Positions 228 through 3,200 of a stretch of 64,000 nt of DNA are shown here, piece after piece. Numbering within the stretch: the stretch's first letter is position 1; every line of letters begins with the position of its first letter. This DNA comes from Paraspadella gotoi (Eukaryota > Animalia > Chaetognatha): positions 29,842,338 to 29,906,337 of the forward strand of contig CM119263.1 in NCBI GenBank assembly GCA_051294375.1, in the 5' to 3' direction. The notes beneath the pieces are model-generated. The model searched no databases and had not been told where the DNA came from. It worked only from the letters and a program-made list of their open reading frames with translations. Both the position numbers and the translations under genes were made by a program.

Positions 228-3200
228 TTTTGAACGCGAGCGAATCTTACACAACATCTTCGGAGGAGTATTTCTACAGGAGCGTACTTCAAATGTCAGG
301 TTGGACGATTGTAATTGTAAAGTTTTATATAATTTTTTTGAATTTGTGTTCTTTTTTTTCAGATGACATCTCGAGTGAATTTATGCTCAAGTGGGATTTA
401 ACGTTTTGTTTTCTCATCGCTTGGATCCTGATTCTACTCATTATTTTAAAAGTAGGCTAAATAAGAAATGTTTTAAAAAAATAAATTTCTGAAAAAAAAC
501 TATATTCAAAATAAAATTCAATAAATCCATATATTGAAAATAAATTTTAAATATCAATCAAATAGTAATTATGCTTTAAAAAAACTGTTTTGTTTGTTTT
601 TGCAAATCCCAATTTTCAATCGCTATTCCTCTTCACATCCACAGGGTGTGTCTTCCTTAGGCATGGTTGCCTACATCACTTCCACACTTCCTTACATCTT
701 TATCACAATACTCATTGTCCAAGGAAGTCAAATGGACGGAGCCTTGGAAGGAATCAAGTATTACATTTATCCCAAATGGGAATATCTCTTGAAGCCTCAG
801 GTCTGTTGCTGTAATATTGCTGTAATAATGTAATACCAGAGGTTTTAATTTTTAGTAATTTTTTGGTGTTTTTACCCTATTCTACTGGAGGACTCTAAAA
901 AGAAAGAAGCTTTTTGAAAGACAAAAGAACATTCAAAATAAACTTTATCTACACCCACTAGATCTTCACTTGAATCTGTTTTTCAACAAAATAGCAATTG
1001 TTTTTTTAAATTTTTATTATCATAAATCTTTTAAAAATTATTTGATATTTTTAACAAATATTTTTTTCTTGTTCTATTTTATTTTATTCTATTTCTTATT
1101 CTATGTCTTAAAGCATTTTAATCATATTTCAAATATCAAAACAAAAATAATATTGTTTTGATTTATAAAATATTTTTGCAAGTACCAAAATGTTATTAGT
1201 GCCGAAGTGATAGTGATTAACATGTATTGGCGCAGCCACTGGTTCGTATTTCTCTTCTATCATTTTTATTTGTTATATACTATCTAATACTATTAAAAAT
1301 AGCTAATTTTCTCATATTCTTTACAAATCATTTTGATTTTTTCTTCCGCCACCTTTAATGTTACTTTATTTTTTTATTAACTACACCTTTACCCAATTAA
1401 TAATTCTCTCAATTTCCATCCACCCATTCCTCCATCAATCTCACTTCCATTCACCCTCTCCTCAAAAGGTCTGGGGCGACGCCGCCGTCCAGATCTTTTA
1501 CTCTTTGGGTCTCTGCTCCGGCGCCCTCATCTCTCTCGCATCCTTCAACGACTTCCGCAACGACTGCCTTCGAGACGCAGTCGTCGTCAGCCTCGTCAAT
1601 TGTGGAACGAGTCTCTACGCGGGATTCGCCGTCTTTGCCGTCTTGGGTTACATGGCGGATCGATCGGGAAAGCCCATTGCCGAGGTGGGTGGGAAACCTA
1701 TGTATAGTTAATAATTTGTGAAATTTGGATTTTCTTTTATGTTTAACATAATATGTTTTAGTAGTTGGTTTAATTAGAAGAATTAAAATGCGATAACATA
1801 TTTTGTTAAAATTTTATGATTAACTTTTTTTAATCAACATTTTAATTATTATTAACTTTTTTGATAAATGGCACTGCAAAAAAAAAAGGCCCAAGTTTTA
1901 GTAATGTCTTTTTTTTATCTTGTGTATGATATTTATTATGGCGGGCCAGAATTTAACATTTTTTACAATATGAAACAGTCTGCAATAAAAGTCTTTTGTC
2001 CTTATACAACCAAATTGACTTATGATGTTAGATTTTGATTAAATTCATTTTCCTCATGCGTGGAAGCATTTTAATATAAAATTGGTACAACCAATATATA
2101 TTGAACAATATATAAGAAATGTTTCAAAATTTTTTTAGGGAATTTAAATTTTTAAAAATAGATTCTTATATAAAGGTTAGTATTACAAATTTCAGAAATT
2201 TTAATGAGAAATAGGTTAAAATTTGAAAAACCTTAAAAAATTATTATCATCATCATTATTCATTAAATTTTATAATTTTTGTTAATTTTCATAGACAAAT
2301 CATTAAAATTTCAAGAAGTGGTAATAACCTTCATCTAACTTTTCAAGCTCTATCAGAATCCGATAAAAAAATTTAAAGTTTACCAAAATTTTTTTTTACA
2401 TTATAGTATTTTGATAAAATAAAATAGCTTCCATGCGTTTAACTATAAGATAAATCTTAACTTTTTAATTTTCACGATCTTTAATAAACACATTGAAGAG
2501 ACAGTAATTATTGTTATGTGATAGTGACAGAACCGTTCAATATAAGCAGTCCCTGAGCTTTGGATCAGGCTGTAACACCGAGTTACAGGCGGGTTAAGCG
2601 CCCCGTCACTCTTAACTGCCAGACGGCCACCGGGCTAGAACCCCGGACCTTTGGGTTGGGAGGCGAATGACTTGCCTCCGGCACCAATGGCCGCTGATGA
2701 ACGGTTGGTTGATTTTAGTCCACCATACATCCCCCCTCCCGTAGGGAGAAGTCTGTTGCGTCTCTTCAGTGAATTGTTGTTATTGGTGGAAAGTTCGTCA
2801 CCAAATTGAGGCATGTCGCCTGATGTGTTGTGGGCGGAAAGTGCATCGCCAGGTTGAGGCATGTCGCCTGAAAGTGTTGTTGTTGCTGTTGTGTTCGGAA
2901 GTCGGGCTCACCAACAAGAGACAGTAATTATTGTTATGTGATAGTGACAGAACCGTTCAATATAAGCAGTCCCTGAACTTCGGATCAGGCTGTAACACCG
3001 AGTTACAGGCGGGTTAAGCGCCCCGTCCCTCTTAACTGCCAGACGGCCACCGGGCTAGAACCCCGGACCTTTGGGTTGGGAGGCGAATGACTTGCCTCCG
3101 GCACCAATGGCAGCTGATGAACGGTTGGTGGATTTTAGTCCACCATAACATTAACAATATTTATACCAGACTTCTGTTAGTTTGTAACCTGTTCCGCCTA

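Follow-up and report, generated by a model that had tools for sequence, protein, structure and literature searches.

A protein-less Helenus-type retroelement of the chaetognath Paraspadella gotoi with a twister-like fold in each long terminal repeat and a possibly retrozyme-like replication

How a retroelement that encodes no protein is transcribed, processed and copied is the question raised by a 654-bp insertion in the genome of the chaetognath Paraspadella gotoi. The element lies on the minus strand at positions 2494-3147 of a stretch of 64,000 nucleotides (assembly GCA_051294375.1, contig CM119263.1, positions 29,842,338 to 29,906,337), here called the window, to which all coordinates refer. 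An initial annotation, made from the letters of the window alone, had described a compact long terminal repeat (LTR) element whose LTRs are built around a tRNA-like cassette. The cassette is indeed there, and a second module had been missed, namely a fold resembling the twister ribozyme that lies behind the cassette. Our overall reading, for and against which the arguments are about evenly balanced, is that of a protein-less Helenus with a permuted twister in its LTRs, which would probably cleave as a dimer and probably replicate in a retrozyme-like manner.

Read along the minus strand, the element consists of a 5′ LTR, a primer-binding site (PBS), a 187-nt core with two 46-nt repeats, a polypurine tract (PPT) and a 3′ LTR. 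Together with the target-site duplication (TSD), its parts are:

2490-2493, unstranded: TSD ACAT, left copy; the empty-site joint skips 658 = 654 + 4 bp
2494-2727, minus strand: 3′ LTR, 234 bp, TA...CA, delimited by the repeats and by many unlike flanks that begin before 2494
2622-2694, minus strand: degenerate tRNA-Gly(CCC)-like cassette of the 3′ LTR, with A and B boxes
2730-2740, minus strand: PPT of 11 nt, separated from the LTR by 2 nt, seen in the sequence
2778-2871, unstranded: pair of 46-nt direct repeats inside the core (83%), both with a short hairpin
2901-2913, minus strand: PBS, 12/13 to the printed tRNA-Trp 3′ end
2915-3147, minus strand: 5′ LTR, delimited by repeats and contigs; PBS-side end altered in this copy
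3042-3114, minus strand: degenerate tRNA-Gly(CCC)-like cassette of the 5′ LTR, presumed promoter for RNA polymerase III (Pol III)
3148-3151, unstranded: TSD ACAT, right copy

The two direct repeats of ~232 bp and ~98% identity that had been proposed initially were found at 2496-2727 and 2916-3147 (232 nt, 5 mismatches, 98% identity), and the proposed PPT was found as the purine tract 2740-2730. The claim that the element has no open reading frame (ORF) also held, the longest stop-free frame being 90 codons and the longest Met-started frame 75 codons. No reverse transcriptase or integrase was found among the 96 ORFs of the window. The PBS, said to be one mismatch away from the end of tRNA-Trp, agrees at 12 of 13 positions with the A. 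mellifera tRNA-Trp 3′ end printed in Fig. S2 of PMC10886601. Self-priming was considered and rejected, as the 3′ end of the tRNA-like cassette is not complementary to the PBS. The description of the element as young finds loose support in 5 differences over 232 positions between its LTRs, read in an assembly with many indels.

The dispersal of the element was assessed by comparing contigs of four public runs (X4, X5, X6 and X9, from three studies) with positions 2000-3240, where 19921, 3607, 3044 and 1200 contigs could be placed. Run X9 had been guessed to be RNA, yet it covers the intron flanks and was therefore treated as DNA. Contig depth was read for letters, not as copy number. Contigs whose flanks differ from one another end before 2494 (103, 77, 76 and 21 in X4, X5, X6 and X9, respectively), some also before 2492-2493, and behind 3148 (71, 64, 50 and 17), and the mutual agreement of these flanks is 0.39-0.45. 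An empty-site joint from 2489 to 3148, which skips 658 bp, is present in 4, 1, 0 and 1 contigs, that is in three of the four runs, and 23 more X4 contigs join left-flank-like letters to 3148. Since the flanks are themselves repeated, these empty sites might be paralogous and not allelic. In either case, a skip of the element plus one TSD fixes the TSD at 4 bp, and ACAT flanks both ends as initially annotated. The element is a dispersed multi-copy family, and the unlike flanks at both ends in all four runs bear out the earlier description of a non-autonomous LTR element.

Assembly-like duplicates do occur elsewhere in the window, and the repeat pair might accordingly be seen as two tandem copies of a short interspersed nuclear element (SINE) or as an assembly duplication. 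The first of these had been named initially as the alternative that would overturn the LTR reading. Both are refuted by the PBS and PPT at the junctions, by sharp ends with many unlike flanks and no A tail, by the high depth at which contigs cover the internal region, and by the empty site of 654 + 4 bp.

The same contigs settle the termini, which had been called atypical. The TA start is a trait of the family, and TA...CA ends are also found in at least four wasp Helenus LTRs (Helenus-1_MeDo, -3_MeDo, -3_TheEle and -2_EuAn; PMC10886601). A canonical TG start 2 nt farther out was rejected because the flanks break at 3147/3148 and the empty site fixes 654 + 4 bp. The sequence CTTGT at the PBS-side end belongs to this copy alone: almost the entire depth at 2915 differs from it, and loose ends behind 2914 represent the normal CA end, which gives an LTR of about 234 bp. 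In one variant among the contigs, purines are continuous up to the LTR start. The letters beside the break-offs read ATAT, ATAC, GTAC and ATGT; these are low-agreement consensus ends, and they suggest an insertion target that alternates between purine and pyrimidine. Such a target would account for the right-hand break-off peak at 3148.

The tRNA-like unit is 73 nt long in each LTR, not 72 nt as first stated, and is degenerate. ARAGORN reported no tRNA in either LTR at the default threshold or at 90%, and no tRNA match on the element was obtained from Rfam at E<=10. At 88% (3′ LTR) and 84% (5′ LTR) ARAGORN calls Gly-CCC, with 0 of 500 and 6 of 500 shuffles scoring, and the A/B-box pattern of the cassette recurs in 35 of 20000 shuffles. 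The cassette is degenerate yet above chance. It is likely a Pol III promoter; Pol III transcription is presumptive for Helenus in general, too (PMC10886601). The same head is found at a further locus:

45707-45928, plus strand: probable solo LTR from a sister family whose tRNA-like head is the same and whose twister-like core is decayed, found by local alignment

This locus aligns to the LTR of the element with a local score of 59, compared to a mean of 19 and a maximum of 38 for 2000 shuffles, and is a probable solo LTR of a sister family. It has TG...CA ends and a TSD with one mismatch, and a duplicate lies near 52270-52490 on the minus strand.

Helenus elements (Kojima 2024, PMC10886601) are described as terminal-repeat retrotransposons in miniature with a tRNA-like unit in the LTR, and animal Helenus as having 4-bp TSDs and PBSs in common with Gypsy elements. 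The element resembles Helenus (TRIMp3) in its size of less than 1 kb, the absence of an ORF, the A/B-box tRNA-like unit in both LTRs, the PBS and the PPT. Its 4-bp TSD is that of animal Helenus, and its tRNA-Trp PBS that of Helenus-2_SyJa (PMC10886601). With a length below ~1 kb, two LTRs, no protein, the cassette, PBS, PPT, a 4-bp TSD and many copies, it almost certainly belongs to the Helenus type. It differs from other Helenus described there by ~125 nt of LTR behind the cassette, which hold the twister-like fold, and from most of them by the lack of a T-run behind the cassette. Five motifs of the element were looked for in the supplement of PMC10886601, and none occurs there; ribozymes in Helenus are mentioned nowhere in the text of that paper.

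The module behind the cassette has the layout of a type-P5 twister, in both LTRs:

2965-3040, minus strand: P5-type twister-like fold of the 5′ LTR; predicted cut between 3016 and 3015
2545-2620, minus strand: twister-like fold of the 3′ LTR with mismatches in T1 and P2 (2561, 2608); predicted cut 2596/2595

Each fold (3040-2965 and 2620-2545 in its own direction) directly adjoins the cassette. It runs from a P5 stem through the 3′ strand of P2, GA and CGG, a 6-nt linker, UAA, CCC and GC to a P3 hairpin and P4, whose loop of 8 nt reads U-CCG-AA-G-Y. In the 5′ LTR, P5 has 7 bp, P2 has 2 bp plus a C.A, the pseudoknots T1 and T2 have 3 bp and 2 bp (one wobble), P3 has 6-7 bp and P4 has 5 bp. T1 and T2 are paired in the 5′ LTR apart from that wobble, and T1 has one mismatch in the 3′ LTR. 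The N-A-A cleavage loop and the opposing G-A, corresponding to the catalytic A and G, are present in both LTRs. The minimum free energy (MFE) structures contain P3, P4 and P5 (z -2.3 and -2.0). Eight of nine letters of the P3 5′ strand are as in the twister table of S. mansoni (PMC8501958). All core features listed in the twister review PMC5408937 are there, in P5 order. P1, which that review describes as dispensable in vitro, forms no hairpin here; in its place stands the 6-nt palindrome, which is able to pair between copies.

A descriptor of the fold was relaxed to allow a 3-nt P2 strand and any pair atop P4. Across both strands of the window it matched once, at the 5′ LTR. It recovered 41 of 55 phage pattern loci, but neither any of 40000 LTR shuffles nor any of 57 chance loci (56 metagenome and 1 viral pattern matches, used as negative controls). 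These 57 were all that a pattern scan for relatives had returned, and all are due to chance, with a P4 of 0-3 bp and no BLAST match to the element. Rfam Twister-P5 was passed by 11 of the 20 phage loci scanned among the 55. Further, a covariance model derived from 53 phage twisters alone, themselves predicted motifs, gave its two best matches in the window at the LTR sites, with rough E values of 0.022 and 0.036. The unusual features of the LTR fold recur among these phage motifs. Of 14 distinct matches that form P1 and P4 stems, 5 have the CCG/CGG form of T1, and 2 of 7 scanned loci with this swap pass Rfam. A 3-nt P2 strand is found in 27 of 50 phage P5 matches, 20 of the 27 having exactly 3 pairs, and all 10 scanned loci with this pattern pass Rfam. 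In four phage contigs (L143, L144, L153 and L167), 2-5 P5-type twister motifs whose P2 strand has 3 nt lie grouped at intervals of a few hundred bases.

Several observations weigh against a twister. Rfam gave no twister match on the element at E<=10, so that the gathering score is not reached. The pair atop P4 is an A-U above a G-C in both LTRs, at a position where twisters have an essentially invariant G-C (PMC5408937), and the stems form in none of the 10 distinct phage pattern matches that have A-U at this place. The third P2 pair is C.A, compared to four Watson-Crick pairs in a canonical P2, and changes of P2 length may disrupt the active site (PMC5408937). It is this C.A and the A-U atop P4 that raise our main doubts. 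In addition, the phage model places P1/P2 in another register, the descriptors were composed after the element had been seen, and in this copy the core is substituted in both LTRs. The variant letters of the contigs cover 40 of 170 rows; the common ones among them near the fold speak in its favour, as they lie at 3000-3001 (P3 loop), 3040 (last P5 pair kept) and 3043/3046 (linker). The absence of an Rfam match and the MFE structure, a closed three-hairpin junction, could also mean that the module serves packaging or dimerisation and resembles a twister by chance. We consider such a junction very improbable in view of the shuffles (0 of 40000), the independent phage model, the likeness to the S. 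mansoni twister, and pseudoknot covariation in a second repeat family. On the other strand, a CUGAUGA motif has no GAAA partner and Rfam gave no hammerhead match on the element; a plus-strand hammerhead and a fold like that of hepatitis delta virus were rejected by eye.

This second family, called R3 here, provides the third and fourth matches of the phage model and has about ten copies in the window:

32441-32504, minus strand: best-preserved R3 copy, same twister layout with compensatory changes, found with phage model and descriptor

Another copy lies at 60380-60448 on the plus strand, and decayed copies lie near 8443-8558, 20192-20298, 20753-20839, 22746-22832, 33787-33848, 44476-44547, 60227-60313 and 62486-62606. 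The best copy shares layout, spacing and the 6-nt palindromic P1 linker with the LTR fold. Compared to the latter, it has A-U for C-G in P2, A-U for G-C in T1 and an A-U in T2; it carries the canonical G-C on P4, lacks P3, and has a 9-bp P5 of unrelated sequence. A looser descriptor matched 4 loci in the window, where 100 shuffled windows gave 1.04 on average, and one of the four (62356) is AT-rich and looks like chance. Two loci have a P5 of at least 7 bp, where 0.02 were expected. In both of them the 6-nt linker is fully self-complementary, a combination that did not occur in 100 shuffled windows. As far as the predicted folds can be compared, the double-sided changes in P2, both pseudoknots and P5 are covariation that backs the twister shape. 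T1 differs between R3 copies, and two R3 units lie ~150 nt apart at 60.2-60.4 kb. Taken at the level of sequence and predicted structure, the LTR fold is very probably derived from a twister.

A twister origin does not imply that the fold still cuts. The LTR might have taken up a SINE-like unit headed by a tRNA in which a twister was already present, derived from an RTE- or Penelope-type source, and the element might now follow an ordinary Helenus cycle, in which the Pol III transcript is linear, its R region is long and strand transfer is normal. A SINE insertion has in fact been proposed as the origin of Helenus (PMC10886601), and twisters are known at RTE 5′ ends (PMC7761336). The departures from the twister consensus, the hairpin that blocks the fold and the decayed L4 in the sister LTR at 45707-45928 are all compatible with such a fossil, and if transcription ran on to the first T4, which lies 69 nt beyond the element, the R region would be amply long. 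On the other hand, double-sided changes keep the pairings between families that otherwise share little, and spacing and palindrome are conserved. Moreover, the majority letters at 2561 and 2977 suit the fold better than those of this copy: at these positions most depth preserves the pairing of T1 and T2, and contigs also show alternative letters at 2561 and 2608, where the 3′ LTR has its T1 and P2 mismatches. Both LTRs of this copy therefore bear private core changes, either by mutation or by assembly error. We regard the fossil as a real possibility, although one that is rather doubtful. By a slight preference, we predict the twister to be active in the family, with this particular copy probably impaired.

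If the twister cuts, the palindrome in place of P1 points to a dimer. In RNAcofold, which takes no account of twisters, the homodimer of the 5′ LTR fold is swapped with its palindrome paired (-65.7 compared to 2 x -30.1 kcal/mol), and so is that of R3 (-40.3 compared to 2 x -15.2 kcal/mol). These swapped dimers exchange P5 and P2, and an 8-bp palindromic duplex stands for P1. The 420-nt monomer between the predicted cuts has its ends joined by P5 in the MFE structure (z -1.7). The sense strand of the element is free of T4 over its 654 nt, so that one Pol III transcript could contain both folds. We propose the following cycle. Pol III would start near 3114 and transcribe through the element, and the two LTR twisters would swap halves and pair via their 6-nt palindromes. 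Cuts at 3016/3015 and 2596/2595 would free the 420-nt monomer with its ends held by P5, and a host ligase would close it into a circle. A Gypsy-type reverse transcriptase, primed by tRNA-Trp, could then copy round the circle and thus rebuild two LTRs, and a helper integrase would insert the DNA with a 4-bp TSD. As the monomer has no terminal redundancy, circularity would be needed for copying into DNA with two LTRs.

This cycle faces objections of its own. The MFE structure of the monomer ties up the letters of T1 and T2 in a hairpin, and a cofold of this copy's own two LTRs retains this blocking hairpin. The cofold results are suggestive only, because hairpins generically gain energy as swapped dimers and pseudoknots are absent from the model. 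The Helenus lifestyle, moreover, does not require a ribozyme, since most of the animal Helenus LTRs examined from PMC10886601 show none by eye. An active twister might instead only trim a linear RNA, either in place of a T-run terminator or to free the element from host read-through, without any circle. Most animal Helenus LTRs examined have a T-rich run after the cassette (PMC10886601), the sense strand of the element lacks T4, and ribozymes are reported to release SINEs and long interspersed nuclear elements from longer transcripts (PMC6765202). The lack of T4 across 654 nt is unremarkable on its own, however, and an RNA cut twice at one and the same LTR position would lack terminal redundancy, so that strand transfer by the standard LTR mechanism (PMC10886601) would fail unless the RNA is circular. 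Linear trimming is hence improbable. The circular RNA route itself is possible, with somewhat more doubt than confidence on our side. Still a little more tentative is the full picture of an animal LTR retrozyme: a Pol III-driven miniature element with dimer-only LTR twisters, in which a self-locked circle of 420 nt replaces the first strand transfer.

The element is inserted antisense inside an intron of an animal SLC6 transporter gene, whose exons in the window show 50-71% identity to proteins of molluscs, arthropods, an echinoderm, chordates and a rotifer. An AT-rich repeat at 2190-2421, directly left of the insertion, matches 49296-49462 and 61989-62186. Because this repeat adjoins the element and both flanks are multi-copy in the runs, the element landed in repeated DNA. 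Cys/Lys-rich reading frames without a Pfam match lie at 6976-7356 and 7425-7781 on the minus strand, opposite to the gene and within an SLC6 intron. A C-type lectin exon (34973-35239) and a rhomboid exon (63750-63998) are found on the plus strand. Duplicated stretches in the window (41746-47326 and 50877-56696; 30397-30998 and 31036-31636; 57943-58340 and 58768-59149) are 85-89% identical with many small indels, lie beside N gaps, and probably reflect haplotypes or artefacts of the assembly.

A ribozyme in the LTR of an animal element would be unusual. The reviews consulted place LTR retrozymes in plants, with hammerheads, and describe animal retrozymes as lacking LTRs; metazoan retrozymes are without LTRs, PBS and PPT according to a 2020 review (PMC7761336), and a 2026 preprint describes LTR retrozymes as occurring primarily in plants. 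In the literature searched, to which subscription papers and Repbase did not belong, no ribozyme, twister or otherwise, was found in an LTR element of an animal. The biological role of twisters is known in few cases. If the predicted cutting is true, a twister would here have a function in an LTR element and cleave only as a dimer, and circular RNA would take the place of template switching.

Compared to known twisters, the fold shares with type P5 (RF02684) the order P2'-GA-T1'-P1-UAA-P2-GC-P4/L4, the catalytic G and A, complementary T1 and T2, and both optional stems P3 and P5 (PMC5408937). It differs in the palindrome for P1, in a P2 of two pairs plus C.A, and in the A-U atop P4, and it lies below Rfam's reach. 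The twister T-variants of Perere-3 of S. mansoni are likewise borne by a retroelement and have a near-identical P3 5′ strand and a weak P1. However, they are P1-type, stand singly at the 5′ end of a non-LTR element, and their cleavage has been shown (PMC8501958). In Penelope-like hammerheads (PMC6765202), too, a short palindromic loop replaces a stem, and tandem copies are thought to cleave as dimers; these are hammerheads in a pseudo-LTR, without an integrase-type TSD.

In its architecture the element resembles the plant LTR retrozymes, which are non-coding, have a PBS, a PPT and a 4-bp TSD, and presumably use a Gypsy helper (PMC4918200, PMC7761336). They also carry one ribozyme per LTR, which is predicted in our case, and their monomer is cut out between both ribozymes. 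Ribozyme cleavage and RNA circles have been demonstrated for them (PMC4918200), and a copying route through circular RNA has been proposed (PMC7761336, PMC4918200). In contrast to the element, plant retrozymes carry a type III hammerhead and a tRNA-Met PBS, and no tRNA-like cassette is mentioned for them in the descriptions consulted.

The closest animal parallel comes from Helenus itself. In DataS1 of PMC10886601, the LTRs of two families from Synergus wasps, Helenus-2_SyJa and -2_SyUm, can be folded by eye into a complete type III hammerhead directly behind the B box. Its helices I, II and III have 7, 4 and 6 bp, respectively, it contains CUGAUGA, GAAA and a GUC site, and its loops 1 and 2 are complementary over 12 letters. 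No such fold was seen by eye in the other animal Helenus LTRs that were examined from that paper, of which the fungal parts were searched by term only. If both our reading and the wasp hammerheads are true, ribozymes of different classes would have been captured behind a tRNA promoter at least twice, and the retrozyme reading would predict hidden ribozymes in other Helenus families. The wasp elements and ours have in common a tRNA-Trp PBS, a ribozyme-shaped fold immediately behind the tRNA-like unit and the lack of a T-run, whereas the fold of the former is, by eye, a hammerhead and not a twister, and the sequences look alike only in the PBS and the B box.

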